Shown in pieces: positions 3,004 through 44,415 of a DNA stretch of 64,000 nucleotides. Below the pieces are notes generated by a model. It had not been told where the DNA came from. It saw only the letters and a program-made list of their open reading frames with translations, and ran no database searches. The DNA is from a virus. The stretch covers positions 6,625 to 70,624 of IMG/VR virus record IMGVR_UViG_2740892559_000001; one strand, written 5' to 3'. The first letter of the stretch is position 1. Every line of letters starts with the position of its first letter. A program made the position numbers and the translations under genes.

Positions 3004-3033
3004 CCCCCTAAATCCCCCTTATCAGGGGGACTT
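3004..3033. repeat. REP-like palindrome CCCCCTAAATCCCCCTTATCAGGGGGACTT
   Basis: Intergenic hairpin CCCCCT-TATC-AGGGGG resembling a widespread REP class. Confidence 0.5.
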
Positions 3034-3039
3034 ACTCTT

Positions 3040-6000
3040 CTATTTACCCTCTGCTGAAATTGCATTCTGAATTTCTGTTATCTGTGCCTGGATTTCTTCT
3101 TCTGTCATATCCTTGTACAGCCAATCCAGCCGTTTGCGTTCAGGGTTCACCGACCATCGACCGCCACGGTTGTTCTGTAACAGGATATTGAAATACTCGT
3201 GATACATCAGTGAGACCCGTTCTTTTGAGTACTGGACAGCCTGATGCCGGCAATCTTTTGGGGAAATCTGGTCTATATTTTCCAAACACCACACCATGTG
3301 ATCGAAATTCTGTGTCCGCCAACCTGTTTGACCATCTACTACCCAGTCCATCGGCGCGCCCCAGTTCGATGTGATATGCGGTGTCCCACAGAAAAGCGAT
3401 TCCACACCGGACCCCAGAAACGGCTCAAGATAGATGCTCGGGCAGACGTGCGCCATCGCGTTCGCGTAAATATCGCTCCGGGTCGCAATATCCGCGACAC
3501 CTACAAACTCAAGCTGCGGCGGAATCTCTAAACCGCATTGCTCTAACCGTCCAACACCCGCGGCAATTAGCCGAGTATTCGTATACTTCGCGAGTTGAAA
3601 CACATCGTGCAAGCCTTTACAGATATTGATCCGCCCAACAAAGCAGATATAATCATCCTTCTTTTCTTTGTATTCAAAGTGATCAAAATCAAAGAAATTC
3701 GGGATCACAACAGAATTCCGATCCGGTACTGTGTACTGCATCCGATTATATTGCGAAGAGATAAACTCGTTATATTCACAGTCCGGGTATTTCTCCGCAA
3801 TGAAATAGTTGACATCCGCTTTGCCGCGTTCAAAGTGCAGCTTCGGGCTGCTCTGATAGACACGGTTTTCAGAGAACGCATCTGGGTAACCGATAGAAGG
3901 CTCAACAATATGCACTGGTAGATCCGAAAGTGCTTCGCAGAGTGCCAAGTGACCGAGTCCATAGAACGCAAGGATAAAATCATCTGCTTGCGCACGTTTA
4001 CGGACTTCAGGCTCAGTGTTTTCGGCGTACGCTTTGAAAACAGGATCATCCATCCCATGCTCCGGCACCACAAAATAATCTGAAGAACCGTAGTGTTGTT
4101 CAAGGATTTTGTTATCGTAGACGGTAACGTGTTCAGTGCATGGCACAGTTGAATCCGCGTGTCCGTAGTAGATAATCCGATGCCCAAGATTTTTCATGGC
4201 GCGACACCACTTAAAGATCCGCTGCACAAAAGCACACGCGAAATCTTCTTTGCCGGTCGCGTAAGGCACTTCAAAGACGTGGAAAGTTTTGCAGACAGGC
4301 GGTGTGTAGAAATTGAATTCATCAACCCCACTTTGCGCAGCAGTGATAGATGGCAACACTTTCGGTCTATCCTTGATAAGGATCCGCTCCATGTGTTGAA
4401 CTCGGATGGAAGCGTTTGCTGTGCCGTCTATACCGTAACAGTCTCCTACCTCACACATTTTACGGAAGAAATCCTCATCCTTAACATCTTCACACACTAA
4501 CTTACCGCCATCGGACAACAGCTCTACATAGTTTTCCAAAAAATATAATTGGTCAGAAGGTTCATGCGTCGCATCGTCTATAATGATGTCGAAGCCGTCC
4601 GGGTATTCCGCTTTCAGAAACGCTATCGTTGCAGGCTTATACGCGTCGATTTTATGGAAAGCCGATTTCTCGTTGAGTTCACCTACATAAGTGATGAGAT
4701 CCAAGCCGACAACCTGTTCTACAAGCTCTGATTCCTGAAACGCCTCCATAGAACCTTCACCAAACAGGCTCACGCCGATCTCCAGGACCCGTAGCGGTCG
4801 TTTCTTACGGAATACCATCGACTCGAAAATCATATCGTAAAACTTGCCGTACTGGTGACCCTTTGGATGCTGTTTGTCCGATCGCGTACCTATCAACTTA
4901 TCCGAAATGGATTGTGAATCAGTTACCTGTGGCGGTTCATGGAACGTCAACGCCTCGTAGAAATCGTCGTAATACTTCTCAAAATCTTTCTGCTCAGGTC
5001 CGTGGTCGTCCGGCACGATATGTGCGACGTAGCCCTCTTTATCCAGGGTCTTGTCCCGCGCAATGAATTCCGATTCATAGTTGTAAAAGTGGAAGCTACC
5101 GAGTTTTTTTCTCAGATCAGAGACCTCTTGATGCGCGGATTCCCACATCGCAATCAAGAATTCGTCCTGATAACAGGTTTTATAGAATTTCTTGATATGC
5201 GCTGCGAGCGAGTGTTTCACCGGCAGCATAAAGAGTTGTGTAGAGATGACTGGGCGATCGGTTTCATACTTCGGATGTACGGGTCTTTTATTTTCTATCC
5301 AATGCTCTAATGCATAAAAACATCGTAACTCTTGTCCAAACAGATCCTCGTCAGCGAAAAAAGGTATCCCCGCCGCAAGACAAACCCCATGCACCCAGAT
5401 CCGGTACTGATCGCCGGTATACGAACCCATGAACCGCTTGATCGCCGACGGGTTTTCAAAGGCTTTCAGTTTATCGTACCAGTAGAATTTATCACCCGCT
5501 GTGCAGACAAACGCATCGGAATCGGCAATAAGCCATCGCGCCGTCTCGATATTATCCTCGAGGCACATAAACTTTTTGCCGTAGTGCGGGTGCTTAACTT
5601 TATCCGATTGTGGGAACGCAATATCCATTCGACGGATAAACTGCTTAGGCACTTGGAACGCTTCAAAGACTTCCGAAACCGCGTCGTAGACAGCGTCCTC
5701 GACATGGAAATAGATACCGACACCGCGCTCGGCTAAATCCGTATTGCGTATCAAGGACATCGCCGCCCAGACGGCACCTTTTGCGTGGACATCCTTCAGC
5801 CGTTGCGAATTCGCAGGTGTCAGTGTCGCCGAGTCGATAGCAGAATGGAACAACGCTATCGAAACAGCAACTTCCGTATCCGTGATTTCGTAGTTGGGAT
5901 ACTCTACGACCGGTAGCCTCGTAATATGCGGTTTATGTTTTTCTATATTTCCTTGCGGTTCGGTGAGGTCGGTTGGTCGTTTGATGTCTCTCTCCGTAGA

Positions 6001-6045
6001 TCCGCGCTCCATTACATTACGCGCTACAGTTTTTTGATTTATCAT
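3040..6045 (-). CDS. Three-domain fusion: putative GT-A-like domain, class I SAM methyltransferase, GT4 (GT-B) glycosyltransferase
   Basis: 1001 aa; VLEIGV and FDIIIDDATH..DQ..L..GG.LVCEDV (sugar O-methyltransferase type); FVGRINICKG and PSIYLEPF..VESLFCGTP (GT4); N-terminal LIADSD DxD-like motif is weaker; AGGAG RBS 7 nt before ATG. Confidence 0.8.
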   Translation of the reverse strand: MINQKTVARNVMERGSTERDIKRPTDLTEPQGNIEKHKPHITRLPVVEYPNYEITDTEVAVSIALFHSAIDSATLTPANSQRLKDVHAKGAVWAAMSLIRNTDLAERGVGIYFHVEDAVYDAVSEVFEAFQVPKQFIRRMDIAFPQSDKVKHPHYGKKFMCLEDNIETARWLIADSDAFVCTAGDKFYWYDKLKAFENPSAIKRFMGSYTGDQYRIWVHGVCLAAGIPFFADEDLFGQELRCFYALEHWIENKRPVHPKYETDRPVISTQLFMLPVKHSLAAHIKKFYKTCYQDEFLIAMWESAHQEVSDLRKKLGSFHFYNYESEFIARDKTLDKEGYVAHIVPDDHGPEQKDFEKYYDDFYEALTFHEPPQVTDSQSISDKLIGTRSDKQHPKGHQYGKFYDMIFESMVFRKKRPLRVLEIGVSLFGEGSMEAFQESELVEQVVGLDLITYVGELNEKSAFHKIDAYKPATIAFLKAEYPDGFDIIIDDATHEPSDQLYFLENYVELLSDGGKLVCEDVKDEDFFRKMCEVGDCYGIDGTANASIRVQHMERILIKDRPKVLPSITAAQSGVDEFNFYTPPVCKTFHVFEVPYATGKEDFACAFVQRIFKWCRAMKNLGHRIIYYGHADSTVPCTEHVTVYDNKILEQHYGSSDYFVVPEHGMDDPVFKAYAENTEPEVRKRAQADDFILAFYGLGHLALCEALSDLPVHIVEPSIGYPDAFSENRVYQSSPKLHFERGKADVNYFIAEKYPDCEYNEFISSQYNRMQYTVPDRNSVVIPNFFDFDHFEYKEKKDDYICFVGRINICKGLHDVFQLAKYTNTRLIAAGVGRLEQCGLEIPPQLEFVGVADIATRSDIYANAMAHVCPSIYLEPFLGSGVESLFCGTPHITSNWGAPMDWVVDGQTGWRTQNFDHMVWCLENIDQISPKDCRHQAVQYSKERVSLMYHEYFNILLQNNRGGRWSVNPERKRLDWLYKDMTEEEIQAQITEIQNAISAEGK
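5949..6028 (-). repeat. GTAG-tagged dispersed element R1, copy 1 (in frame inside the 3040..6045 CDS)
   Basis: Shares GTAGCGCGTAATGTAATGG...CTCACCGAACCGCAAGGAAA ends with copies at 32.7, 33.4, 35.05, 36.4 and 47.7 kb. Confidence 0.85.
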
Positions 6046-6055
6046 CTATATTCTC

Positions 6056-7909
6056 CTAAGAAGAAGACTCCAGAGTCGTTACGCGATCTGTTAATCCCGA
6101 TACAAGGGAAGTCAAATTTCTAATATGGTACTGAACACCTTTCACATTTGTTTTTATCGTATTCGCAGCACTATCAATCTCAAGAAATGCCATCTTGCCT
6201 AATTCGAGAACACCTGGCGTTTCAGAACCAGATAAAGTTGTAGCGGATTCACTGAAAAACTGCGAGATATGCGAAAAGTTCAGCGTGCCGTCAGAGCCTG
6301 GCGCACCAACACCTGTTGGCCCTTTTCCGGTTGCCCCGGTGATGCCGGTACCGCGTAGATCATCAGGCGTTATATTCGCCACACGCCCTTTAATCGTTGC
6401 ACCTGTGATCCCCGTGCCAACAAGATCATCAACCGTTGCAGTAACTTGCCTACCCTTAACCGTTGCCCCTGTGATCCCTGTACCAACAAGAGGTGCTGCA
6501 TCAACGCTACGCCCTTTGACGGTCGCCCCTGTGATCCCCGTGCCGACAAGAGGTGCTGTATCGACTCTACGCCCCCTGACCGTCGCGCCTGTGATACCAG
6601 TTCCCACAACAGCGTTCCCAGCTCTCCCCTTAAACGTCGCACCTGTGATGCCGGTTCCCACAACTGCATTCCCAGCTCTACCTTTAGTCGTTGCGCCTGT
6701 GATGCCGGTTCCGACAAGATGGGCAGCGTCAACTCTACGTCCTCTGACCGTAGCACCCGTGATCCCCGTCCCGACTTCAGCATTCCCTGCCCGTCCTTTT
6801 GTAGTCGCGCCTGTGATCCCCGTGCCTCTCAATGAATTGACAGTTGCATTAACCCGTCTGCCTTTGACCGTTGCCCCTGTAATGCCCGTGCCGACGAGTG
6901 AGTTTCCAACATTCGCTTGTCTACCTTTTGTTGTCGCACCTGTGATGCCGGTTCCCACAACTGCATTCCCAGCTCTACCTTTAGTCGTTGCGCCTGTGAT
7001 CCCTGTACCAACAAGAGGTGCTGCATCAACTCTACGTCCGCGGACGGTAGCACCCGTGATACCGGTTCCCACAACAGCGTTTCCGGCTCTGCCTTTTGTT
7101 GTGGTTCCTGTGATGCCCGTACCAACAAGATGTGCTGCATCGACGCTACGTCCGCGGACGGTCGCGCCTGTGATGCCGGTTCCGACAACTGCATTCCCAG
7201 CTCTACCTTTAGTCGTTGCACCCGTAATCCCAGTGCCGCGCAAACTATTGACAGTTGCATTAACCCGTCTACCTTTAACGGTCGCGCCTGTGATGCCCGT
7301 GCCAATAAGAGAATTCCCAACGTTAGCTTGCCGACCCTTAACGGTCGCGCCTGTGATCCCCGTGCCAACGAGCGAATTCCCAGCGTTAACTTCTCTGCCC
7401 TTGACAGTGGCACCTGTAATCCCCGTGCCAACCAGATCGTCAACTGTTGCAGTAACTTCTCGACCTTTGACGGTAGCACCCGTAATCCCAGTACCAACTA
7501 AATCGTCAACAGTTGCGGTAACTTGCCTACCCTTAACCGTAGCACCCGTAATCCCGGTGCCACGTTCACCTACGCCTGTCGGTCCTATCCCTGTTGAACC
7601 TCGCCTGAAAACAACGAAATCTGTATAAATTTCAAAGTTGATCGTTTTCTTAGATTTTTTTGTTTCGCCATTTTCCTCCCACTCCGCAACAAGCACCAGG
7701 CGTGTTTGTGTCTCTTGTGTGACATTCGCAATCCTATATCGCAATTCGTTTCTAACGATTTTCGTTTGCGCAGCCACAAATTGCGAAGGCGGTGTCTCAA
7801 GTGTAATCGTTGCACCAATTGGATCCCTAAGAAACTCATAGATATTATGTATTGTGCCAACCTTACTCGCTTGCACATGCTGGATGGGAATTGGAAACCA
7901 TTCTCTCAT
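6056..7909 (-). CDS. Repeat-rich fibre-like virion protein
   Basis: 617 aa; 21 copies of GTGITG(A/T)T followed by variable 6-14 aa spacers; C-terminal LTDRVTTLES coil; lies in the tail operon. Confidence 0.7.
   Translation of the reverse strand: MREWFPIPIQHVQASKVGTIHNIYEFLRDPIGATITLETPPSQFVAAQTKIVRNELRYRIANVTQETQTRLVLVAEWEENGETKKSKKTINFEIYTDFVVFRRGSTGIGPTGVGERGTGITGATVKGRQVTATVDDLVGTGITGATVKGREVTATVDDLVGTGITGATVKGREVNAGNSLVGTGITGATVKGRQANVGNSLIGTGITGATVKGRRVNATVNSLRGTGITGATTKGRAGNAVVGTGITGATVRGRSVDAAHLVGTGITGTTTKGRAGNAVVGTGITGATVRGRRVDAAPLVGTGITGATTKGRAGNAVVGTGITGATTKGRQANVGNSLVGTGITGATVKGRRVNATVNSLRGTGITGATTKGRAGNAEVGTGITGATVRGRRVDAAHLVGTGITGATTKGRAGNAVVGTGITGATFKGRAGNAVVGTGITGATVRGRRVDTAPLVGTGITGATVKGRSVDAAPLVGTGITGATVKGRQVTATVDDLVGTGITGATIKGRVANITPDDLRGTGITGATGKGPTGVGAPGSDGTLNFSHISQFFSESATTLSGSETPGVLELGKMAFLEIDSAANTIKTNVKGVQYHIRNLTSLVSGLTDRVTTLESSS
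6329..7561 (-). repeat. Intragenic tandem repeat (about 54-66 bp units) encoding GTGITGAT(V/T)(K/R)GR
   Basis: 21 units counted in the translation. Confidence 0.95.
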
Positions 7910-7914
7910 TTTAC

Positions 7915-8096
7915 TTGCTAAAAAATGGGGAAAATGCTATACTATAAGGAAGGTAGTGGGAAGGGATGGAACCCCTTCCCGTGCCAAGTATTGAAAAATC
8001 ACAGAATCCAATCCGGTTTTCGCATTGGCATTTTTATTTTAACACCTTCCTGTAGAAATGTCAAGCGAGGTCCCCAAACCTATAGGAGCTTGACAT
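7915..8096 (+). promoter_or_regulatory. Sigma70 promoter plus structured leader of GIY-YIG cassette 1
   Basis: TTGCTA(7915)-17 bp-TATACT(7938) with TG extension; hairpins GGGAAGGG/CCCTTCCC (7958-7980) and ATGTCAAGC/GCTTGACAT (8058-8096, overlapping AGGAG); second copy at 28937-29115. Confidence 0.75.
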
Positions 8097-8097
8097 T

Positions 8098-8952
8098 ATG
8101 GGTTTCGTCTACATGATCACGAATGACATCAATTCTAAAGCATACATCGGCATCTGTATCCATCCACCTGAGAAAACGAGAATCAAAGCCCATCTTTCTG
8201 GGCGTGGCAATCAGGGTATAGCCGACGATATCAATATCTATGGCAAAGATGCCTTTACCTATGAAATCCTTGAAGCAAACGTCTTTGATGAACTTCTGCC
8301 TGATCTTGAAAAGGCGTATATCGCCAAATTTAAAACTGTCCATCCGCATGGGTATAATCTCACATCTGGCGGTGAGGCTGCTAAAACGATTTCTGATGAG
8401 ACGCGTTGTAAAATCTCTGAAGCACACAAAGGTAAATCACTTTCCGCTGAACACCGTCGTAAAATATCTCAAGGAGGTAAAGGTCGAAAGTTTCTCATAG
8501 GACATCGCCGCAAACTCTCTGAAGCCATGAAAGGTGAAAAGAACCATCAATTTGGCGAAACGCATTCTGAAGAAACACGTCGGAAAATGTCTGAAGCACA
8601 GAAAGGTAAAAAAAACCATTTTTATGGCAAAACGCTTTCTGAAGAACATCGCCGTAAAATATCTCAAGCGAACAAAGGCCGAAAGCATTCTGAAGAATCC
8701 CTCCGTAAAATGTCTGAAGCACAAAAAGGCAGAACACTTTCTGCTGAACACCGTCGTAAAATATCTCAAGCTCTGACGGGTGAAAAGCACCCAAACTTAC
8801 ATCCGGAGCACATACGAGCGCGTAATTATTTCTTTTCTCTACCGTCTGCTATGCCTTTAAAAGAGAGAAGAAAGTTGCTCCGTACAGCATTCCGAAATAT
8901 TCATAGAAACACTATCTATCACTGGGTGCGCAAATGGACATCAACTGCCTAA
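8098..8952 (+). CDS. Free-standing GIY-YIG homing endonuclease with NUMOD3 repeats
   Basis: GFVYMITN...AYIG motif, repeated HSEE(T/H)RRK(M/I)SEA units, C-terminal TIYHWVRKW helix. Confidence 0.9.
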   Translation: MGFVYMITNDINSKAYIGICIHPPEKTRIKAHLSGRGNQGIADDINIYGKDAFTYEILEANVFDELLPDLEKAYIAKFKTVHPHGYNLTSGGEAAKTISDETRCKISEAHKGKSLSAEHRRKISQGGKGRKFLIGHRRKLSEAMKGEKNHQFGETHSEETRRKMSEAQKGKKNHFYGKTLSEEHRRKISQANKGRKHSEESLRKMSEAQKGRTLSAEHRRKISQALTGEKHPNLHPEHIRARNYFFSLPSAMPLKERRKLLRTAFRNIHRNTIYHWVRKWTSTA

Positions 8953-8988
8953 GCCTACAACGTTGGGTGCTATTCATTCATAAAAAAC

Positions 8989-11247
8989 CTACAAAGTAAC
9001 CAGTTTAACAGAAGTTGTTGGTGGCTGTCTGAATGCGTGCCGGATCTCAAGCACTTGACAAAGATTTCCGTTGAGGTGCAGGCGTTCTTGTATTTTCAGA
9101 TAGACGACATCACCGACGTTCATGTAGAACGTAGGCTTCAGTGTTAGATTAAGAATCTGTTTTATTTCCTTGAAGCGAGCGAGATACGCATTTGCGAGCC
9201 ATTCAGCCCAGACGCGCTGATGAGCATCCAAAGGTATATCTACTTCCAAAAGCCGTGCGCCGTTTTCAGTGATACTTGTTGCGTCTTCAACAAGGACCGC
9301 CTCGCCGTCGCCATATCGGAGCCGTACCCTGTTATAGAACTGACGGAGATCGTTGGTGGCGACGATAGATTTGATAGGCATCTCAAGTACATCTGCGTTG
9401 AGTGCCAAAATGTGATCGACGAAAGTGATGTCGAAGTTGCCGGTGTGTGCAGCAGCGGTGGTGTCCTCGGCACCGCGGACAAGGTTTGCGAATTGACCGT
9501 TTTCATCTGCGCCTGTGTGTTTTATCAGTTCACCGTCGATAAAGAGCCATCCTTCGTTGGGGAATTCACCCCAATTCAGTTTAGCCGCGGTAACCGATCG
9601 TTGCGTTGCGGAGATACCTGATCCGCCTCCGTTGAGAGCTTTCTGGGGTTCACGGGGCCGCATAAAAAAGGTATCGTTTTTGAAGCCTATGATAGCATTC
9701 GTAAGAATCGCTATATCTTTCAACACATCAAACCCTGTGCGTCCGTTTGTCAAAACCTCGCTCAGCCGTTGATTAATCTGGTTGTGATGCTGAATCCAGT
9801 TCCAATTGCCGATACGGTTGACGGGGAATTCACCGCGGGGTTGTCCAATATCGTCGAAGTTCCCGAAGCCGGTAATCAGATGCAAAACCTCATCTGCTAT
9901 TATTATCGGTGAGGCAGTGCCGCCATGGATGCCATAAAAATAATCTGTCTCCTCGGTGTCCGGGTTATCATCTGTAGACGCGCTGCGCCAGTTGCGTCCG
10001 ACCGTTTGAATTGTGCTTGCTGGATGCTCAATCTTGTACAGATGGCCTATTTTTTCGCGATAGTCAGGATCCGAGAACTCGGTCTCATCCTCGTATACAT
10101 AATGTGAGCCTTCCATGAAATACAGCATGTTTCCATTGACCGTTAGCGATCGTGCTGCAAGCGTCATATCCGAATACGCTTTCAAAACCTCAAATTGACA
10201 GTTTGCGGTGTTTACTCGCACCAGTACGGCACCTGCTTGTCCGTTTGAGAGGAAGTTTTCCGGGTTTGTTGGCGTAACCAGTTCACCGTCATCGTTGACC
10301 GTTTGTGTGAACTTTCGCACTTGAACAACAAGGTACACATAATCACTAATAGCAATAGATTCCAGTACGCATGTAAAGGCTCCCCCGGCATTATCACCGA
10401 GGTGTGGAATTACATCGTTAAGCACATCGTTTGCGATAATATCTTTCTCCAGGACACAAACTTCATCTGCACCCGTGACTTGTGCAACTGCAGTTGGTGC
10501 TGCGATCTCGAAAGTTTTAGAGGTATCCTCTAAAGGGCCGAGGACAGCAGGATTAGAATTTGCGACTTGTGCAGATTCAGCAGAAACCGTAATCGTTACT
10601 TTTGTGCTGGTGTTGCTTGGCGGTATCGTGAGCTCGGCTGTGTATTTACTCGCATCCCCTGACACTTGTTGAAAGTTGCCGATTGTCCCCACATCTGTTT
10701 GGGCATCCGCCTGCACAAAGTTTTCCATCGGTACCGGTGTGTCATCTGTATAGGTCCAGTCGAAAGTGAGAGGGATAGGTCGTTGCGTAATCGGTCTTTG
10801 TGTTGGCACGCCAATTTTGACGATCGGAGCGACAATTCCCAATTCTATAGTCGCAGATGTATCCTCCGAGGGACCGGTGACATTCGGATCAGCTATCAGT
10901 GTTGCGGCATTCGCAAGCACAGTAATTGTCCAATTCCCCGTCCGTTTTATAAATCTCACATCACAGGTATATCGGCTGTTGCTCACTTTTGTAAATCTGA
11001 AAATCTCACCGCCGGGGTCGCCTATTAGAGAACCGATACCGAAGCCGCTCACCGGTGCAGGCTGCCCGTTGTTATTTTCAAAGTCAAATACAATCGTTGC
11101 GACACGACCGGTATAACGCGATGCCATCGGTGGACGGATAACGACTGAGAGCGAAAGCGTCGCTGTCACCGGTGGTTGATTGCCGCTCACCATAGTGAGG
11201 GACTGGGTGTTCGGGGTCCCGCGTATAGCCATCTTTCCATGTAGCAT
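8989..11247 (-). CDS. Tail hub/tip protein, C-terminal part, preceded by Ig-like and propeller domains (start may be 11232)
   Basis: C-terminus NDLRQFYNRVRLRYG...MNVGDVVYL is typical of tail hub proteins; N-terminal Ig-like repeats resemble the 1..482 ORF. Confidence 0.65.
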   Translation of the reverse strand: MLHGKMAIRGTPNTQSLTMVSGNQPPVTATLSLSVVIRPPMASRYTGRVATIVFDFENNNGQPAPVSGFGIGSLIGDPGGEIFRFTKVSNSRYTCDVRFIKRTGNWTITVLANAATLIADPNVTGPSEDTSATIELGIVAPIVKIGVPTQRPITQRPIPLTFDWTYTDDTPVPMENFVQADAQTDVGTIGNFQQVSGDASKYTAELTIPPSNTSTKVTITVSAESAQVANSNPAVLGPLEDTSKTFEIAAPTAVAQVTGADEVCVLEKDIIANDVLNDVIPHLGDNAGGAFTCVLESIAISDYVYLVVQVRKFTQTVNDDGELVTPTNPENFLSNGQAGAVLVRVNTANCQFEVLKAYSDMTLAARSLTVNGNMLYFMEGSHYVYEDETEFSDPDYREKIGHLYKIEHPASTIQTVGRNWRSASTDDNPDTEETDYFYGIHGGTASPIIIADEVLHLITGFGNFDDIGQPRGEFPVNRIGNWNWIQHHNQINQRLSEVLTNGRTGFDVLKDIAILTNAIIGFKNDTFFMRPREPQKALNGGGSGISATQRSVTAAKLNWGEFPNEGWLFIDGELIKHTGADENGQFANLVRGAEDTTAAAHTGNFDITFVDHILALNADVLEMPIKSIVATNDLRQFYNRVRLRYGDGEAVLVEDATSITENGARLLEVDIPLDAHQRVWAEWLANAYLARFKEIKQILNLTLKPTFYMNVGDVVYLKIQERLHLNGNLCQVLEIRHAFRQPPTTSVKLVTL

Positions 11248-11613: not shown

Positions 11614-13082
11614 AGTGCTTTTTTGAATACGAGCGTTTGCGATCTGCCGCCGCTGAGGAACGTCATCCCGCCGAGGAGTGTACTACCACTTATATCGAAG
11701 CCGATGCCCCCGTGGTTTTCGTAGTTGTCCATATTCATCGTAATCAGGGCAGTTGGCGTAACACCAGCTGCCGTCGCTTTCGCAACCCCAAACTGCGAAT
11801 TGCCGGCATTGACGCAGGCATAATAGAGCCCATCGTTTTCCCTATAGATCAGCTGCCGTCGTGAATCAGGTTTCATAAACACACTCGCAACCCCATGATA
11901 ATAATGTGCGAGTTGGGGCTTCAGGCTCACAGTATGCGCGACAAAAACGGTTTCTGTCTTGCTGGTGATGTCCAACTGGATAATCTGATTCTCGCTGCTC
12001 GCCTCATTTGCGTCGTAATTCCCGCCCGTAGTTGTTAGCAGATAGAGGTTATTCCCGGATTTCGTGAATTTCCACACCTCTGTCGCCGAACTGAAACCGT
12101 GCAGTTTGGTATAGGTGCGCGTCCTGGTATCGTAGGTTATCACCTGCGAGAACCCGTTCGGATTGTTCCTGTGCTTATTGTAGAGAAAATACCACTTGCC
12201 AGCGTCGTGTAGGAAATCGGTCACATAACCGTTCCATGTCACAGGGTTCCCGCTCCCGATGTTCCCGATCAGATCGTAATTGATTCGCCCATTTGACGAA
12301 AAGTGTGGGTCAGCGTCTCGCGCTGGTATCGCTATATCGGAATTCGTGATGCCGGCATGGTTGAGAATATCGGTAATCACATCCAAGAGATGCCGGTATC
12401 GGTATGGCGATTTCATTCGGATTTGCGGGTATCCGGACTGCGGATTCGTTATAAATCCGCCTTCGGTACGTACACCTTTATCACCTATGATAAAGTTTTG
12501 CGAGTCCAAGGTCCCTTCCGTTGCGAGTTTCTGAACGGGTTCGATCTCCTCACCGGTACGTGTTGCCAACTTAACAGATCCGTGTGATGCCGGCATGATG
12601 GCATCCATCACCGGATAGACCCCGTTTTCAGCGGCTTGTTCAAGATCTTCCGTTAACATAAAGTGCCGCGGTAAACCGAAGTCAGCAACCGCTTTTTTCC
12701 GTATATCGCCGAAATTGTCAGTACATGTTACTCTCAGTGACTTCACGTCCTGAACGAGTCGGATGATGGTCCCTTTAAAGACAGTTTCCGTGTGGCGGGT
12801 GCCGTCCACAATAAACCCTGCCTCGATTTCGATAGGTGAGTTGCGACCGGTACGTCGACCGCCGTTTCGCGTGAAGAAGTTCGACGGGTTGTTGGGTGAA
12901 AAATCGCCGTGGATGTCGCGAAGCGTGAAACTCGCTTCCCCCACGCGAAATTCTGTGAGGTTCGGATAGTCCACTCCTTGTCCGATGTCGTCCATTGATG
13001 CGATGTCATCCGTCACGTCTTGGTCGTGGATTTTGACCGTGAGGGCGACTGGATGTCCGCTATAACTAAATTCCTTTGGCAT
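11610..13082 (-). CDS. Tail hub protein, N-terminal part, plus beta-propeller
   Basis: VKIHDQDVT..FTLRDIHGDFSPNNP..IEIEAGF..VFKGTI..TCTD pattern typical of hub N-termini; follows the Dit-like gene. Confidence 0.65.
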   Translation of the reverse strand: MPKEFSYSGHPVALTVKIHDQDVTDDIASMDDIGQGVDYPNLTEFRVGEASFTLRDIHGDFSPNNPSNFFTRNGGRRTGRNSPIEIEAGFIVDGTRHTETVFKGTIIRLVQDVKSLRVTCTDNFGDIRKKAVADFGLPRHFMLTEDLEQAAENGVYPVMDAIMPASHGSVKLATRTGEEIEPVQKLATEGTLDSQNFIIGDKGVRTEGGFITNPQSGYPQIRMKSPYRYRHLLDVITDILNHAGITNSDIAIPARDADPHFSSNGRINYDLIGNIGSGNPVTWNGYVTDFLHDAGKWYFLYNKHRNNPNGFSQVITYDTRTRTYTKLHGFSSATEVWKFTKSGNNLYLLTTTGGNYDANEASSENQIIQLDITSKTETVFVAHTVSLKPQLAHYYHGVASVFMKPDSRRQLIYRENDGLYYACVNAGNSQFGVAKATAAGVTPTALITMNMDNYENHGGIGFDISGSTLLGGMTFLSGGRSQTLVFKKAL

Positions 13083-13196
13083 CGTTACGTCTCATTTCTG
13101 TATGAACTGCACATTAGTATCATTTTGGGCAGTTCAGGACCGTTCTTCTTGTGGATTTTCACGCGAATTGCGACTGTGCCCATGATTTTTTGTTGC

Positions 13197-13985
13197 TTAG
13201 GCTTCCCTAACGCTAAATGATACCCGCCGTCCGCCGCCTTTCCATCTTGATAGGTATCGGATCTGTGTTTCAGGGTTGGGCCAGAGCGCAGGAAAAACGC
13301 GATCCGGGTATCGATTGTATTCTGCGGCAAAGACAAATCTTTTGTATCTCCGAATAAACGAGATAAGTTGATCTGTGAGTGTCTCTCGTGTCCCCTTTCT
13401 CGGTGACTGGAGCGTCAGGTTCACCAACCACTTGTCCCTTTCGCCCCCGATAGGTGGTACGTAAGAGAGCCGTTTGCGTAGATCGGGTTCCACAGTGCCG
13501 AGATCAAGAGAATCGTACTCGATACGGCTAAACCCGCCATCGGAATTCAGTGTGAGCAGCCGATCGAGAACCATCACCTCATAAATGCGTGGTGATGATC
13601 CAGTAAAGGTCAAAGTGATAGATTTCGCTTTGGGCTTCGTGGTGCTTTCGTCTATCCAGAGGTTGTGCAGATCGTGTTGGTATCCGTCAACGGTCGTAGA
13701 AACTTCGTCTCTCGAATCGTTTGTCACGGTTGCTGGTAGCGTGCGCGCAGCGGGACTGGTGATATTTTCTGGATTGGTGAATGCTGCAGAATAGCTGCTG
13801 ACACCGGATCCCTTCACAAAAATATCAGTAAAGGCGCGTGCATCACCAGAGCCATCGCCAGCTGTGTCGATATGCAGGAGCATCGAGGTCTCTGACGTGA
13901 AGGTGTTATAGTCGTTATCTGCTACGGCTTTATATTGGCTGCGTCCGCCGCCGTAATTCAGAGCGGGTAAAAAAAATTGCGCCAT
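13197..13985 (-). CDS. Distal tail (Dit)-like protein
   Basis: Position immediately before the hub gene; C-terminal beta-rich ...RRVSFSVREA ending. Confidence 0.45.
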   Translation of the reverse strand: MAQFFLPALNYGGGRSQYKAVADNDYNTFTSETSMLLHIDTAGDGSGDARAFTDIFVKGSGVSSYSAAFTNPENITSPAARTLPATVTNDSRDEVSTTVDGYQHDLHNLWIDESTTKPKAKSITLTFTGSSPRIYEVMVLDRLLTLNSDGGFSRIEYDSLDLGTVEPDLRKRLSYVPPIGGERDKWLVNLTLQSPRKGTRETLTDQLISFIRRYKRFVFAAEYNRYPDRVFPALWPNPETQIRYLSRWKGGGRRVSFSVREA

Positions 13986-14105
13986 GGGTGCACTCCAGGA
14001 AATGGTTATAAGTTAAAGAGGGTTGGGTTACAGAAAACCCTTCGGTGACGTGGACACCTCTTAACTCTCACTGCGAGGCAAACTTATAACTAAGAACCAA
14101 CAACC

Positions 14106-14187
14106 ATTATAATGTGGAGTGCGTGGCGGCTATAAGGGGAATTCAGTGGGAAAGCAATACATAAGTAATACAATAGCAATACATTTA
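14106..14187 (-). promoter_or_regulatory. Regulon promoter A (triple 11-bp repeat plus TATAAT) for the Dit-hub-fibre operon
   Basis: Minus strand TGTATTGCTAT TGTATTACTTA TGTATTGCTTT CCC; TATAAT at 14111-14106, 43 bp from the proximal repeat. Confidence 0.75.
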
Positions 14188-14529
14188 AGAAAAAGGGAAG
14201 GTTATCCGTGCGATTTTCTCTCACTGCGAGGCATGAAAAATCTTTCGGTTATCAGTTATAAGAGGTCTCTTAACCGATAACTCAAAGCGCAGCATACTGA
14301 AAACGACAACTCTTATAATGTAGAGGGGTTGGGCGGTTAGAATGGGAATTCGGTGGGGAATATATAGAATCAATATAGACTTGAAAAAAAGTGGATGGAA
14401 GATCGGAAGGATGGAAGGGTGGAATTTGAAGTGCGTACGCTTATTTGGACCACAATTTTCTTAGCTTAACATGAGTTTGATAAATAAGAAAAATCTTCTC
14501 GTCGTATGCACTTCACAGTGCTTGATAAC

Positions 14530-15288
14530 CTATCGGACAGAGCGTTTCAGGTCTGCCCACTGCGTTGCCAATTTCCCTTGCGGTTCAACCGGCAGGAACA
14601 CTTCAACGCTGTCCATGATCAGAGTAATCTCGTCTGCGTCTAATGCACGCGTAAAGACGGCATAATCGTCCATTGACCCGGCAAAGGTCTCGCCACCGGA
14701 ACCACCGATGCGATAAATGTCGTTCGCTCCATCGGTTTCCTGAAAGTCGGTTTCAGCAACCATCTCACCGTCGGCATAAATCTTGAACTTATCACCATCG
14801 CCTGTGACGGCTATGTGCATCCACTTACCCTCTTTGACGATGCCCGGTTCGGTCTGACACAGGACTGTCCATCCGCCAACGCGGCCGCGCCAAGAGATGA
14901 GTCCCTCGTCTTTGTTAATGAACAAAGTGTTGTGTCCGATGCCCGACGGTAAACTCCGCCAGATGTGTTCCCATGTGGTGCCTTCAAAGTTCGGGTTAAC
15001 CCAAGCAGAAATTGTGAACGGATCTTCTTTGAAAAGGTCACCATGAAGTGAGTCGGAGGTTTCCAGTTCAACATAGGCGGTTGGGTCGAGTTCAAGGGCA
15101 TCTCCGAATTTGCCGTTTACCCACCGAGATGTGCCTGTAATGTCGCCGTGGTTATCGTTTCCTGATGCGTCTTCCGTATCACCATCAAATGGGTAGTACG
15201 CCACCATATCCGGGTCTTCACCCGTAATCCCTAAAGTGGCGTTTATCAGTAGGAAGGTGACTGCCAAAAATAACGTCCAACGTTTCAT
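14530..15288 (-). CDS. Secreted LamG/concanavalin-like domain protein
   Basis: Signal peptide, VAYYPFDG, FTISAWV, WMHIAVT, GSMDDYAVF motifs; PVEPQGKLATQWADLK tail. Confidence 0.9.
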   Translation of the reverse strand: MKRWTLFLAVTFLLINATLGITGEDPDMVAYYPFDGDTEDASGNDNHGDITGTSRWVNGKFGDALELDPTAYVELETSDSLHGDLFKEDPFTISAWVNPNFEGTTWEHIWRSLPSGIGHNTLFINKDEGLISWRGRVGGWTVLCQTEPGIVKEGKWMHIAVTGDGDKFKIYADGEMVAETDFQETDGANDIYRIGGSGGETFAGSMDDYAVFTRALDADEITLIMDSVEVFLPVEPQGKLATQWADLKRSVR

Positions 15289-15555
15289 GGGTATCGCTCC
15301 TTTGTTAAAAGCGGTGTAATGTCTTTAAACATGATACTTGGCTTAGGATAATTAGGGACGGTTCGGATAAACTTGGACAGATCATTCATATTTTTCTCCA
15401 AATCATTTTTCGGGAACCTTCAACTCTCCTGACACGTCCTTCACGAGAGAGTTTATCAAGGACACCACGGATTAAGGTGTAATCTTGGGAGTCGATATAA
15501 CTTATATTTCTCACTAATTGTCCTTTTAGTTTAATATTAACATCACAGATAAAAC

Positions 15556-17634
15556 TTACTTCCGAATCAACATCTTCCGTGTTGCCGTGAAATCCCCTGC
15601 CGTCAACGTATAGAAATAAATTCCGCTTGTGACGGGTTCACCGAGATAGTTTTTCCCGTCATAGTAGGCAGCGCGGTTTGGCGTTTTATACACACCCGCG
15701 GGCTGATGTCCGAGCGGCAAGGTTCGCACGATTGTTCCTGTTGTTGTCCGTATCGTCAACACAACTTCAGCTGGCACAGCTAACTGGTAAGGTATCCACG
15801 TTTCTGGATTAAACGGATTCGGGTAGTTTGCAAACAGTGCTGTTTTCATTTCTGTTTTCTCTGACTTCAAAAACATCAAGAGATTTTCAAGGCTTGTGAT
15901 ACCTTTCTGGAATTCGATGGACCCGTCGTATTCTGTCCATGCCATGTCTATCCATTGCTGGACTAATTCGGGCGAGATCGGTGCGTCCGGGGTGTTCTCT
16001 ACGGGCGCGTTGATGTACTGTGCGACAAGGACAAGGTCATTGATATTGACGACCCCATCTTCGTTTACATCCACACTGACACGGCTGCCATCGTCCTTCG
16101 AGGCGAGCGGTGTACCAAAATAGAATGCAACCTCCAGCATATCAAGGATACTCACTTTCCCGTCTCCATTGACATCTTCACGGCGCGGGGGTGTCTGATT
16201 TTGGTATCCTGGCAGCCGTTCCTCATATTGTGTATCGGGGGGAAGTCCAAAGAAACCTGACCACCACCCCTCCTTTTCATAAACAGCAACTAACAGGACA
16301 TTATCTCCTGCCAAGAGCGTGATACTGAAACTGTCTTGATAATCATTTGCGTCTCTGTCGATAGCGTTGGTATGAACCAGTGCCCCGTTGAGCCAGACCT
16401 TTACAGCGTCAGAACTGCCGACAAACAGGGTCGTCTCTTGTTCTCGGGGTGCGTTCAAGAGGATGGATCCATAAGCGACGTGGTGATCCACATTATCTAA
16501 GCCTAAACCGATCTCGTTGACGAGTTCGTTGATGTTATTGCCCCCGCTGCGTGAGAGGTACCCCTCTGTCCATCTCTTATTCCCGACAGGATCATACCGT
16601 CTTGCCCCCTGCGTTGCAATCATCGCTTCCGTTGTGGTGCCGTCAGTGGCACGACTGAGATAATCTCTGCCGGAAGCCGCCGCTGCCGCCCCGGACACGT
16701 CACCCGTTGGAACGATCACCCATAACCAAGGGCCCGTGATTTTCGGTGCGGGCCGGACCTCTCCAGGGTTACTGAACGTTATGATATTAACATCTTTCGG
16801 CAACGCATTCAGCGGTGAGAAGTCTTGTATGTTATTATTATTGAGTTCTATCCACGTCAAGTTATGAAGGGTCGCAAGCGGCGAGACATCCGAAATTTGG
16901 TTATGTCGAAGACTCAAACGTGCCAACCCTGTGAGACTTGATAGGGGCGTGATGTCTGTAATTTCGTTGCCGACGAGATAGACCTCTCGCAACTGCGTCA
17001 TCTCTGCCAAAGGTGAAATATCGGTGAGTTCGCCGCCACAGATATCGAGGATACCGAGTTTCGGTAAAGCGGTCAGTGCTGAAAGGTTTTCGATCGGGGT
17101 GCCCCACGTATGAAGCCGTCTTAAACTTATCAACCCGACCAGCGGCGTGAGATCAGCGATCGGGTTCTCAGTGAAATGTATCGATTCGAGTCTGATGAGC
17201 CCCGCAAGCGGTGAAAAGTCCGTGATCGCGTTATGCGAAACATTCAGGTTTGTCAAGTTGATGAGCCCTTTGAGGGGTGAAAGGTCGGATATGTTATTAC
17301 TGTCAAGATCGAGCACTTGCAGTTTGATTAAATCTTTAAGCGGTGACAGGTCAGATATAGCGTTATCGCGAAGTTCGAGTCTATCCAAGTTCGTTGCAGC
17401 TGCCAATCCAGTCAAGTTGGTAATGTTCGCCTCCTCCGCGTCAAGCCGTATCAACGTTGCCATATCCGCCGCAGTAATAGGGTCACCGGGTGCTTTTTCA
17501 AGCACGTTTACGAGTGCAGTCTGCAGGTTTGGGTCCGGAATGTTTACGATTTGGGCGAGTATCCCCTGGGGTAAGCTAAAAAGTCCGATATAAAACAAGA
17601 ACAGGTACAGCCATAATTTCATGCGTTGCATCAA
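15556..17634 (-). CDS. Secreted internalin-like LRR protein with dockerin and C-terminal FlgD-Ig/sorting domain
   Basis: N.ISDLSPL..L..L LRRs; DVNGDGKVSILD dockerin; ANYPNPFNPETWIPYQL C-terminal domain. Confidence 0.9.
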   Translation of the reverse strand: MMQRMKLWLYLFLFYIGLFSLPQGILAQIVNIPDPNLQTALVNVLEKAPGDPITAADMATLIRLDAEEANITNLTGLAAATNLDRLELRDNAISDLSPLKDLIKLQVLDLDSNNISDLSPLKGLINLTNLNVSHNAITDFSPLAGLIRLESIHFTENPIADLTPLVGLISLRRLHTWGTPIENLSALTALPKLGILDICGGELTDISPLAEMTQLREVYLVGNEITDITPLSSLTGLARLSLRHNQISDVSPLATLHNLTWIELNNNNIQDFSPLNALPKDVNIITFSNPGEVRPAPKITGPWLWVIVPTGDVSGAAAAASGRDYLSRATDGTTTEAMIATQGARRYDPVGNKRWTEGYLSRSGGNNINELVNEIGLGLDNVDHHVAYGSILLNAPREQETTLFVGSSDAVKVWLNGALVHTNAIDRDANDYQDSFSITLLAGDNVLLVAVYEKEGWWSGFFGLPPDTQYEERLPGYQNQTPPRREDVNGDGKVSILDMLEVAFYFGTPLASKDDGSRVSVDVNEDGVVNINDLVLVAQYINAPVENTPDAPISPELVQQWIDMAWTEYDGSIEFQKGITSLENLLMFLKSEKTEMKTALFANYPNPFNPETWIPYQLAVPAEVVLTIRTTTGTIVRTLPLGHQPAGVYKTPNRAAYYDGKNYLGEPVTSGIYFYTLTAGDFTATRKMLIRK

Positions 17635-17681
17635 AAATTCTCCTTCTTGAGTTCGGCGCGCGTGTCCCGCGCGCCATCAGC

Positions 17682-20600
17682 TTATTTCATCAACAACATT
17701 TTACGGGTCGTCGTGAAGTGATCTGCGGTGAGTGTGATAAAATAGATGCCACTTGCGACAGGTTCACCAACATCATTTTTGCCATCCCAATACACAGCAC
17801 GACTCCGGGTCTGATAAATGCCTGCGGGCTGATGTCCTAACGCCAGTGTCCGCACCACTGTGCCATTTGTACCGTAGATTGTTAAAGTAACCGTCGCCGG
17901 TTTCGCAAGATGATACGGTATCCACGTCTCGGGGTTGAATGGATTTGGATAGTTTGGCAGTAAAGCCGTCTTTTCCGGCACAAAAGTAGCATAGAGTGCC
18001 TCAATATTTGCAATACCGCGCCGGAAGGTGAGCGATCCATCATCTGCAGCGCGCAAGAGCTCGAGGACTTCTTCAACGTTTTCTGGGGTCAGACCAAGCG
18101 ATTGCGGGTCCCCGAACGGTGCAGCCCCCGCGGTACCTTCACCGAGGTGTGCAGCGACAATCGCAAGGTCCTTGCCATCAACAACACCGTCGCCATTGAC
18201 ATCCGCGCGGGGGTTCTCTGGCGGTGATTGCCCCAATGCCGCGACCACCAATATAACATCCGAGACATCTGTGATGCCATCTTCATTGACATCCCAGGTT
18301 GGAATCGTGGTTTCATCGCCTTCTACAACGATGCGGAGCTCCGGCGGGATAGAAGGCACAGGGTTTCCGCGACCCGAACCTGCTTCAAAATTCTCCAAAG
18401 TCAACAGGCTTTCTCCAGCCCCGACAACCGTAAATGTTACTGAGCATAATAAGCCGTTGCCATCTACACTGTCTCCAGAGAGTCTTAGTGCCTTCAAACC
18501 TGTGATTTTACCATCGCTATTCTCAATTGTGCCTGCCTCGAAGTAGGTTTCTTCGTCCGATGCTTGTAGGAAATCGCCTTCATTCACCTCAACTGCGTTT
18601 AGCACGGCGGGGTTAAACACGAGATCTGCTTGCCAGCCGCCTAAATTTTCCATATTTTCGGCGCGGAGTTCGAGCGTAAACGTATCTTCAACCTCAAATG
18701 CTGTCGCGTCCGTGGAGAACACGAACCGGGGACTCGGCAGAAACACCTCATATTCGGCATCACGTGCAAATGCGAAATGTCCACTGAAACCGCCATGTCC
18801 GTGGTTGTCAATCGCAACTAACAGTACATTCTGCCCCTGTTTGAGCGTTACAGGGAAGAAGCTGCCATCTTGGTCAAAGGTTGCGTGGAGTACGGTGTGA
18901 ACTAACTCGCCATTCAGAAAAACTTTCACAGCGTCATCGTTGCCAATGAACATCGTCGTCTGTTGTTCGCGCGGTGCATCCAAAATGACAGCACCGTAAA
19001 CGATATGGTCGTAGATTTCGCGACCTGTTCCCCAGCCGAGAGCGTCTGTCATTCGGTTAATATTATTGCCCCCCGTGTCGAGTCTATGCCATGTCCAGAC
19101 ACTTTTTCCAACAGCCTTGCCTGCTGTCGCGCCGTTGGTCGCAACTTTTATCTCCGTCGCTGCGCCATTTGTCGCCCGCGACAAAAAATCTGTTTGCGTA
19201 TCAAGACGTGTACCCGGAACAATTGCCCATAACCACGGTCCCGTTATGTGCGCCCCCCTATTGGTGGGAAACCCCGGATTCCCTGTCATGCGGATAGCTA
19301 CCCCTTGCAAATCGTCTAACGGTGAAAAGTCGAAGATCGCATTGTTACGCACGTCTAATCGATGCAAGTTGGTCAACTCGGAGAGCGGCGATACATCTGA
19401 AATGACATTATTTTCAAGATAGAGTAAGTTCAAGTTGGTCAACTCGGAGAGCGGCGATACATCTAAAATGAGATTCGCATCAAGATTCAGATGCGTCAGA
19501 TCCGTGAGGTTTTCCAACGGCGAGAGATCCGTTATCGCGTTATTTACCAATTCTAACCATCGTAGCTGCGTCAATTCCGCTAATGCAGAGATATCTGAAA
19601 TACCGCAGCCGTGAATTTCTAACCGTCTTAACGCTTTCAAACCTGTCAGAGATGGCAGCGCTGTTGTGGACTTGTCATTGCCATATTCTATCCATCTCAA
19701 TACACGCAAGGTCGCCAACGGTGAGAAGTCTGATATAGGTGTCTGCCATGCATCTATTCTTTCCAAACTGGTTAACTTTGCCAGGGGCGACACGTCTATG
19801 ACAGGGTTGCCAGAAATCCCGATCCCTTGTAACCTTGTTAAACCTGACAGTGGGGCTAAATCGATAATACGGTTCTGTTCAAGTCCTAACCAATCCACTC
19901 GGATTAACTTTGCCAACGGCGTGACATCTGTGATCTCATTGTCGCGGAGCTTGATGTTATTCAACTGCGTCAAACCCGCAAGCGGCGATAGATCCGTTAT
20001 CATATTGTGCCGAAACTCTATCCGTTCCAGCTGCGTCGCGAACTCAAGGCCTGTCAAATCACGAATCCCTCTCCGATCGGCGTTAATATTCCGTAAGTTT
20101 AACATCTCTGCGGCTGTGATCTCTTCATCCGCTGCTTTCCCTAAACGTTCGGCAATAACCGCACGCAGATTCACATCAGGGATATAAAAATCGCCCACTG
20201 GACGCATCGGGCCCTCTCTATCAGGCGCAACATACTCCGGATTGAAAAGTGCAGCGCGCACGTCGTGAAAATTGGATGTCCACGCATCCCGTTTGACAGT
20301 GCCGTTCTCCTCGACAAGCGGTGTCAACCCTAAGTCTTTCAAACTCTGTTTCTCGCGTATCTCCGTGAGAAATACTGGGGTTTCCAACCCGACGGCTGCC
20401 GCAGCGGATGCGACATCCAGCGGTGCCTGAAATGCCTCATGAAACCGTTGGACGGGTTCATTTTTATGTCTCTCAAAGAATTGGTTGCGTTCCTCTGCAT
20501 TCGCAAAGGGCTCCCCAATTTTCGCAAGGGCACTTTCAAACCGCGCCGTATCCGTTTGCAGCAGCGTATCCAGAACGGATTGTGCCGGATAGAGGCGTAA

Positions 20601-28929: not shown

Positions 28930-28936
28930 TTTTTTC

Positions 28937-29115
28937 TTGCTAAAAAGTGGGGAAAATGGTACAATAGAAGGGATAAGTGGGAAGGGGCGCAACCCTTCCC
29001 GTGCCAAGTATTGAAAAACCTAACGACTAAGCTGGATTTCGCATTGGCATTTTTATTTTAACACCTTCCTGTTGAAATGTCAAGCGAGGTCCCCAAACCT
29101 ATAGGAGCTTGACAT
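28937..29115 (+). promoter_or_regulatory. Sigma70 promoter plus structured leader of GIY-YIG cassette 2
   Basis: TTGCTA(28937)-17 bp-TACAAT(28960) with TG extension; same two hairpins as 7915-8096. Confidence 0.75.
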
Positions 29116-44319: not shown

Positions 44320-44415
44320 CAGAAAAGGGGAACCCGTCGCTAACGATTTCCCCATTTCATTCTATTTGAAGAATTAGCATATTGTATCACAATGTGCTTT
44401 TACGAAGGAGAAAAA

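Follow-up and report, generated by a model that had tools for sequence, protein, structure and literature searches.

In Gram-positive bacteria, serine-rich-repeat adhesins are O-glycosylated by GtfA/GtfB of glycosyltransferase family 4 (GT4) and then by the GT8-type enzymes GlyD/GlyE, and Bacillus BclA contains a (GPT)n collagen-like region with threonine-linked glycans on its G-x-T triplets and a methylated terminal sugar. Virion glycosylation in mycobacteriophages was reportedly described by Freeman et al. in 2023. According to two reports, the mycobacteriophages Che8 (gp110), Corndog (gp38) and Myrna encode glycosyltransferases, and the C-termini of capsid and tail-tube proteins are glycosylated (PMC12363180, PMC12619734). 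A064R of the chlorovirus PBCV-1 (638 amino acids, aa) contains a beta-L-rhamnosyltransferase, an alpha-L-rhamnosyltransferase and a rhamnose 2-O-methyltransferase (PMC7826918). Here, we describe a phage locus in a 64,000-nucleotide (nt) stretch of IMG/VR virus record IMGVR_UViG_2740892559_000001 (hereafter the window; G000:C177:6625-70624, within a 178-contig, 5.38-Mb metagenome-assembled genome), in which a three-domain enzyme, P0001, is encoded next to a tail fibre with a threonine/glycine repeat array, P0002. The linked fibre-enzyme module is computationally well supported, and P0001 probably matures the neighbouring fibre by O-glycosylating threonines in G-x-T contexts and methylating the glycan.

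As in the mycobacteriophage systems, the module pairs phage glycosyltransferases predicted to serve the phage's own structural proteins with genes that travel with structural genes, P0001 being encoded within the structural gene block. The mycobacteriophage acceptors are capsid and tail-tube C-termini and were shown experimentally, whereas the putative acceptor in the window is an internal fibre repeat array. Compared by description, the window enzyme also differs in its fusion with a methyltransferase and in the Gram-negative-type sponge-symbiont host. A064R is similar to P0001 in combining two glycosyltransferases and a sugar O-methyltransferase in one viral polypeptide, and it caps the glycan on a virion protein. 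However, its domain order is GT/GT/methyltransferase (GT, glycosyltransferase) rather than GT-A/methyltransferase/GT4, and it builds N-linked glycans on the capsid protein of a eukaryotic virus, whereas P0001 is phage-encoded and lies beside a fibre. Since A064R turned up neither as a sequence match (N-terminal profile against PDB sequences) nor as a fold match (Foldseek) to P0001, the resemblance looks like convergence in architecture and not shared ancestry. The serine-rich-repeat adhesin pathway offers a further parallel, as cytoplasmic GT4 and GT8-fold enzymes act there on serines and threonines of a long simple surface repeat, as P0001 would do; the adhesin and exosporium systems are cellular, with separate enzymes and dedicated export, while P0001 is fused, phage-encoded and beside a virion fibre.

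An earlier note on this DNA had described a 1001-aa fusion directly downstream of a 21-repeat fibre and embedded between tail genes, with GPTGVG at both ends of the array, and these features were all recovered (Table 1). The enzyme gene starts 10 nt after the fibre stop codon, which is overlapped by its TAGGAG ribosome-binding site, and the flanking genes encode the large tail proteins P0003 and P0004. By regular-expression count, P0002 contains 21 GTGITG[AT]T units (20 GTGITGAT and 1 GTGITGTT; residues 117-527), and GPTGVG is found at residues 109 and 530. Tandem Repeats Finder also detects the array at the nucleotide level (periods 54-114 nt, 80-85% matches), and the repeat core common to relatives is G..ITGAT.KG. 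Among 5129 frames that run from stop to stop over 150 aa or more in the complete 5.38-Mb assembly, P0002 is the only one rich in G-x-[TS]-G (at least 8 motifs, at 2 or more per 100 aa); the repeat is therefore far from chance.

The distribution of these motifs bears on the idea that P0001 glycosylates other virion proteins (capsid, tail tube or the P0003 propeller) instead of or besides the fibre. Such a role would agree with the position of the enzyme gene within the structural operon, and capsid and tail-tube subunits are glycosylated in Che8, Corndog and Myrna (PMC12363180, PMC12619734). However, the density of G-x-T/S is 8.6 per 100 aa in the fibre and 0.7-1.7 in P0003/P0004, and what is conserved beside the enzyme gene is the repeat fibre gene rather than those of capsid or tube, so we consider other virion proteins improbable acceptors.

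In an AlphaFold2 (AF2) model of P0002, the N-terminal domain is beta-rich (predicted local distance difference test, pLDDT, of about 85), each repeat forms paired strands and residues 590-615 form a helix; the mean pLDDT is low to moderate, at 64.6. In Foldseek, this model gave just weak immunoglobulin-like (Ig-like) matches to the N-terminal domain, and we claim no fold for the repeats. A collagen triple helix was considered for P0002 and rejected: the register breaks after two consecutive G-x-T triplets in each 18-22-aa unit, and AF2 models the repeats as strands. Long G-x-T runs are present in the fibres of L147, L140/L141 and S-CBWM1 gp076. The N-terminal domain and a C-terminal tail, ISGLxxRVxxLES, are common to fibres of related phages. 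A homologous-protein search with the N-terminal domain gave no match, and an exhaustive HMMER search recovered just truncated relatives of the N-terminal domain and low-identity repeat matches, probably due to repeats breaking the assemblies. In other metagenomic proteins (P0048-P0130; L130 = G112:C30), this ~100-aa anchor is found in combination with many repeat types, such as GDTGxKGDKG collagen-like repeats, SEAASTADSKATAA, FITSGDIPDTSG and Ig-like repeats of about 110 aa; most of these proteins end at contig ends, which indicates that repeats break assemblies.

To our main point, the pairing of enzyme and fibre recurs. In at least 12 further loci, a short-repeat fibre of the Thr/Gly or Ser/Pro kind has beside it a related fusion, a methyltransferase/GT-A enzyme in permuted order, GT4 and GT-A as two genes or GT4 alone. 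The fusion itself is found directly downstream of a Thr/Gly repeat protein at 87% identity in L011, behind a fibre with the same repeat as P0002; at 56-58% in L012 and G143, behind a GTGITGATTKG fibre; at 58% in L125, behind an ITGATTKGPPG fibre; at 46% in L126, in a different tail module, behind a TGKTG-type repeat protein; and at 45% in L013, behind a Thr/Gly repeat protein with ATGKTGTPSEVPG. The most divergent enzyme (L147, 34% identity) follows a fibre with more than 100 G-x-T/S triplets and a second G-x-T protein. The upstream Thr/Gly repeats thus vary in sequence among loci (GTGITGATxKG, ITGATTKGPPG, TGKTG), and the two genes share a strand in the window (gap of 10 nt), in L011, L012, L097, L125 and L013 (11-19 nt) and in L126 (64 nt). 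Three further loci, judged by gene order and gene sizes, have the same arrangement.

Other loci contain the domains in different combinations. For example, G112 encodes a circularly permuted methyltransferase/GT-A enzyme without GT4 behind a fibre with VTAGITNSVV repeats, G090 and G088 encode GT4 and GT-A separately, two genes behind (GYT)n collagen-like fibres, and in G116 a lone GT4 is one gene away from a SLSESPPRY-repeat fibre. In G141 (L143, G141:C73:1-12000), a lone GT4 lies between a P0004 homologue and a SPSPGQYTQP-repeat fibre, and this phage is a close relative of the window phage (tape measure 81%, Dit-like protein 84% and P0004 77% identical). Compared with window positions 3040-11247, the lone GT4 and the SPSPGQYTQP fibre of L143 take the place of P0001 and P0002. 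It seems that such a fibre and its enzyme are swapped as one cassette.

The nearest homologues of the GT4 domain in cultured phages are S-CAM7 gp016 (37% identity) and S-CBWM1 gp075 (27%). Together with an enzyme of ACG-2014f, they are cyanomyovirus members of phrog_3408 that are 27-37% identical to the whole GT4 domain and, like P0001, lie directly downstream of a G-x-T collagen-like structural protein in the baseplate/tail-fibre region. In contrast to P0001, they are single-domain enzymes of about 325 aa with predicted function, without GT-A or methyltransferase partners, in myoviruses of cyanobacteria. S-CAM7 gp016 (in locus L148, which spans 12914-18910 of NC_031927.1) follows two STGATG-type G-x-T-run proteins between the baseplate hub and tail fiber genes, and S-CBWM1 gp075 (in locus L149, 81669-83722 of NC_048106.1) directly follows a collagen-like "tail fiber protein" whose repeats start with GTGITGPTG. 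A 2-oxoglutarate-Fe(II) oxygenase is encoded two genes beyond the GT4 in S-CAM7. The linkage thus outlives fusion, fission, permutation and reordering. Co-occurrence of the gene pair in other phages, which the earlier note had proposed as a check, is strongly positive across phage lineages, domain arrangements and cyanophages; its expectation that homologues are linked to repeat fibres holds in the further loci above, but not in four to five homologues with no fibre beside them.

These observations can be set against the main rival, in which P0001 modifies a host surface glycan. In that case the enzyme would build a methylated sugar side branch on a cytoplasmic intermediate of lipopolysaccharide (LPS), capsule or exopolysaccharide, for lysogenic conversion or superinfection exclusion, and the adsorption of competing phages would be blocked or progeny kept from sticking to debris. 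Such a role would fit the usual view in the literature, where GT8 and other glycosyltransferases of myophage tail-fibre hypervariable regions, and of marine-phage tail-fibre regions generally, are read as host-surface modifiers (PMC7029224, PMC12801897). It is also favoured by the temperate nature of the phage and by stand-alone methyltransferase and GT4 pairs, distant relatives of the P0001 domains, which are common in Poribacteria chromosomes. However, it leaves unexplained why the gene tracks G-x-T or Ser/Pro repeat fibres through all these rearrangements, also in unrelated cyanophages. Moreover, the gene lies inside the late tail operon close behind the fibre and not near the integrase. 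P0001 does not resemble the Gtr-type serotype-converting class, as it contains no hydrophobic segment and no GtrA/GtrB-type genes were found among its neighbours. Taken together, modification of the host surface appears unlikely to us, though less so than the other alternatives.

Several findings weigh against fibre maturation, and some of them favour the host-surface alternative. Four to five homologues are not beside a fibre (L008, L015, L145/L018, L146 and perhaps the P0036 locus). Among them, L008 (the assembly's own paralogue on C123), L015 and L145/L018 adjoin WD40 proteins whose C-terminal domain is type-IX-like, and L146, also without an adjacent fibre, belongs to a rearranged relative of the window phage. 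For the GT4 and methyltransferase domains, the nearest relatives of solved structure use small molecules or sugars as substrates rather than proteins, and P0002 is not a true collagen triple-helix sequence. The phage carries an integrase and ParA, so a role in lysogenic conversion is possible, and much of the synteny could be inherited and not selected.

The fusion homologues outside tail modules are located at L008:4529-7624 (G000:C123), L015:10001-12844 and L145:82-3176. The C123 paralogue contains a tandem linker of 4-5 TPLDKGGQEQQ copies between its methyltransferase and GT4 domains, the L145 copy is split into two genes, and WD40 genes are abundant in the genomes carrying these WD40-neighboured homologues. 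A chromosomal origin of the more distant homologues was also considered and dropped, as L146, L147, L126, L013 and the P0018 locus are phage contexts; only L008, L015 and L145 have no phage structural genes in their vicinity. The C123 paralogue falls within phage-borne copies in a maximum-likelihood tree, where the P0034 group (L015) is an early branch.

In order to characterize the enzyme, 36 full-length homologues (34-87% identity, mostly from ENA metagenome assemblies) were aligned and the three domains were treated separately. The catalytic motifs, namely the DxD, the S-adenosylmethionine (SAM) motif with its acidic metal site and the EX7E, either do not vary or are shared by at least 90% of the 36 homologues, and all three domains look catalytically intact from these alignments. 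The N-terminal domain had been called the weakest assignment in the earlier note and is now supported by a confident fold model. No Pfam family matches it in any of 35 members, and no glycosyltransferase model, Glyco_transf_8 (PF01501) included, was found at E ≤1. A fold search was needed because the profile of this domain gave nothing usable against PDB sequences. The AF2 model built from the family alignment has a pLDDT of 92.4 and a predicted template modelling score (pTM) of 0.91, and every Foldseek match (PDB and Swiss-Prot models) is a GT-A glycosyltransferase, including Ktr4p, WbbM, LgtC, LARGE1, glycogenin, XXYLT1, UGGT and galactinol synthases. The VIA-align Z scores are 12.4 for glycogenin-2 (root-mean-square deviation 3.9 over 215 residues), 12.0 for LARGE1, 11.6 for UGGT and 11.0 for both GlyE (5gvw) and LgtC. 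D175 and D177 of the DxD motif and H342 are invariant, S176 is found in at least 90% of homologues, and H342 would be a metal ligand. The domain is therefore modelled as a GT-A enzyme with a GT8-like fold from a family that Pfam does not describe; it is not a sequence member of GT8, and its fold is nearest to GT8 enzymes. Its structural neighbours that act on proteins or glycoproteins are glycogenin, UGGT and GlyE, the last from the serine-rich-repeat adhesin pathway.

The SAM O-methyltransferase and GT4 domains proposed in the earlier note were likewise found again by profile searches. For the middle domain, the family profile matches demethylmacrocin O-methyltransferase (8ia9; 1.5e-11) and 3ssm (2.4e-11), which we take to be MycE, at profile positions 29-137, and these alignments include both the loop that binds SAM and the acidic DDGSH site. 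LEIGVSxFGxGS and FDIIIDDxxH do not vary within the family and coincide with the equivalent motifs of 8ia9 and 3ssm. In Pfam, the generic Methyltransf_24 is found in 35 of 35 members, with P0001 itself below the cut-off, and RMNT_CmcI in 2 members; by its sequence relatives, the domain is assigned to the TylE/TylF/MycE type of metal-dependent sugar O-methyltransferases. The C-terminal domain is assigned to GT4 with a conserved EX7E, on the basis of PF00534 (44.1 bits against a cut-off of 26.4; residues 788-915), PF13692, which passes too, and phrog_3408 (8e-69). The EX7E motif is E874-PFLGSGV-E882, with both glutamates in at least 90% of the 36 homologues. The GT4 profile matches glucosylsucrose synthase (7fg9; 4.9e-28) and tetrahydrobiopterin glucosyltransferases, and its alignment to solved GT-B enzymes covers only positions 160-373 of 414.

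These relatives raise the alternative of a small-molecule or DNA product, that is, a methylated glycoside, a compatible solute or glycosylated phage DNA that evades restriction. The best GT4 sequence relatives are the glucosylsucrose synthase and tetrahydrobiopterin glucosyltransferase just mentioned, the methyltransferase relatives act on macrolide sugars, and 7fg9 is listed among the structural neighbours of a glycosyltransferase that belongs to a DNA-hypermodification cluster of a phage (PMC13326640). However, the gene lies in the tail module and not in the replication module, the fibre linkage speaks against such products, and the scanned open reading frames (ORFs) of the window and contig contain no base-hydroxymethylase or similar DNA-hypermodification gene. 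DNA glycosylation in particular was set low, as no supporting genes were found and the gene sits in the tail module. Among the alternatives, this one seems the least probable, and we give it very little credence.

Returning to fibre maturation, P0001 would be a cytoplasmic, late-expressed maturation enzyme for P0002. No transmembrane segment was found in P0001 (highest 19-residue Kyte-Doolittle mean 1.31), and it is thus predicted to be soluble and hence to work in the cytoplasm, which is also the place of fibre folding. Co-transcription and translational coupling of the two genes are probable: a strong sigma-70-like promoter site lies about 125 nt upstream of the fibre start codon, and no terminator-like site was found on the minus strand between the two genes in our scan. 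The acceptors would be threonines in the G-x-T motifs of the 21 fibre repeats. The GT4 domain may prime the reaction by adding the first sugar to threonine, since in other phages a lone GT4 of this subfamily is the only enzyme that goes with such fibres. Extension of the glycan would next fall to the GT8-like GT-A domain, and capping, by O-methylation of a sugar hydroxyl, to the TylE/MycE-like methyltransferase. We infer the sugars and the step order, the latter from which domains occur alone beside fibres. The modification may serve fibre stability, as with glycosylated threonines in G-x-T collagens, or protease resistance, shielding or recognition. Possibly it masks the particle from sponge lectins or immunity, for which the sole basis is that the host is a sponge symbiont.

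Table 1 Features of the fibre-enzyme module and the surrounding phage genes (window coordinates)
Feature	Position	Strand	Details
P0003, 829-aa tail protein downstream of enzyme	489-2978	minus	NHL-repeat match; C-terminal NHL/beta-propeller-like region
P0001, 1001-aa three-domain enzyme	3040-6045	minus	starts 10 nt after fibre stop codon
C-terminal GT4 (Glycos_transf_1) domain	3043-4290	minus	aa 586-1001; EX7E and GR....KG motif
Middle class-I SAM methyltransferase domain, predicted sugar O-methyltransferase type	4351-4890	minus	aa 386-565
N-terminal GT-A-fold domain, GT8-like (modelled)	4891-5940	minus	aa 36-385; D175-S-D177 and H342
Dispersed ~95-nt host-genome repeat	5938-6034	minus	supplies first ~35 codons of P0001; blastn
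P0002, 617-aa tail fibre	6056-7909	minus	Ig-like N-terminal anchor (~aa 1-100), repeat array, C-terminal helix
Repeat array	6329-7561	minus	21 units GTGITG[A/T]T-x-(K/R)G and variable linker; period 18-22 aa
Sigma-70-like promoter, candidate for fibre-enzyme operon	8036-8064	minus	TTGACA, 17 nt, TG, TAAAAT; 11/12 matches
P0004, 752-aa tail protein upstream of fibre	8989-11247	minus	Big_12 match; weak PHROG "tail protein" match
Tape measure protein	26095-29007
Large terminase	38322-39764
Portal	39865-42162
Major head protein	44392-45807

The host of the phage is Candidatus Poribacteria, a Gram-negative-type sponge symbiont: Poribacteria assemblies hold every full-length genomic match to P0001, and one homologue carries the name Candidatus Poribacteria. 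A megablast of the region against the phage collection gave no match, and a search of viral contigs for loci related to P0001 gave no relative. The dispersed repeat at the start of P0001 ties the phage to the host genus. It has 64 blastn matches on more than 35 contigs of the assembly (C156, C109, C90, C65 and C55 among them) with further copies on the phage contig, and in translation it recurs, both within ORFs and outside them, in many genomes of this genus. All P0001 homologues except P0005 lack the N-terminal extension and start just after the repeat, which may have supplied a new start codon for P0001.

The phage is siphovirus-like, and it is temperate, because a tyrosine integrase and a ParA-type ATPase are encoded on the contig right past the right end of the window (G000:C177 ~71.5-73.5 kb; L010:1023-3027). 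Beyond them, the contig encodes a secreted protease of the trypsin type, which contains CARDB, dockerin and type-IX tail domains, and carries a sigma-70 gene. P0003 homologues are found downstream of the enzyme in L013 and L144, and P0004 is kept in related phages, L143 among them. In the 61-nt gap between P0001 and P0003 there is a perfect GC-rich palindrome, TCCCCCT-TATC-AGGGGGA (window 3013-3030), where the scan reported no minus-strand T-tail terminator; it may form an RNA hairpin inside the operon. The window contains two GIY-YIG homing endonucleases. One such gene (8098-8952, plus strand) lies between P0004 and the fibre gene, with divergent promoter-like sites at 8036-8117, and L011 and the P0010 locus also have a GIY-YIG/NUMOD3 gene nearby within this tail region, differently placed or in the opposite orientation.

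So far, phage-encoded glycosylation of the particle has been shown for a few mycobacteriophages and virus-encoded capsid glycosylation for chloroviruses. The pairing of enzyme and Thr/Gly fibre offers a testable alternative to the host-surface view, in which the fibre itself is the substrate, and S-CAM7 and S-CBWM1 are possible culturable test systems for fibre glycosylation. More tentatively, and with some doubt on our part, the phage GT4 subfamily that comprises phrog_3408 and the fusions of Poribacteria phages, whether or not GT-A and methyltransferase domains are present, might have as its dedicated task the O-glycosylation of G-x-T and Ser/Pro repeat fibres in unrelated marine phages, where glycosylated threonines would stabilise or shield collagen-like fibres. 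In that case, many of the "LPS-modifying auxiliary genes" in marine-phage tail-fibre regions would be virion-maturation enzymes. If the fibre is indeed the substrate, such auxiliary genes would have to be read differently, and a fibre-directed system of O-glycosylation and methylation would be added to those known, which would matter for the stability of phages, their recognition of hosts and their survival in an animal.

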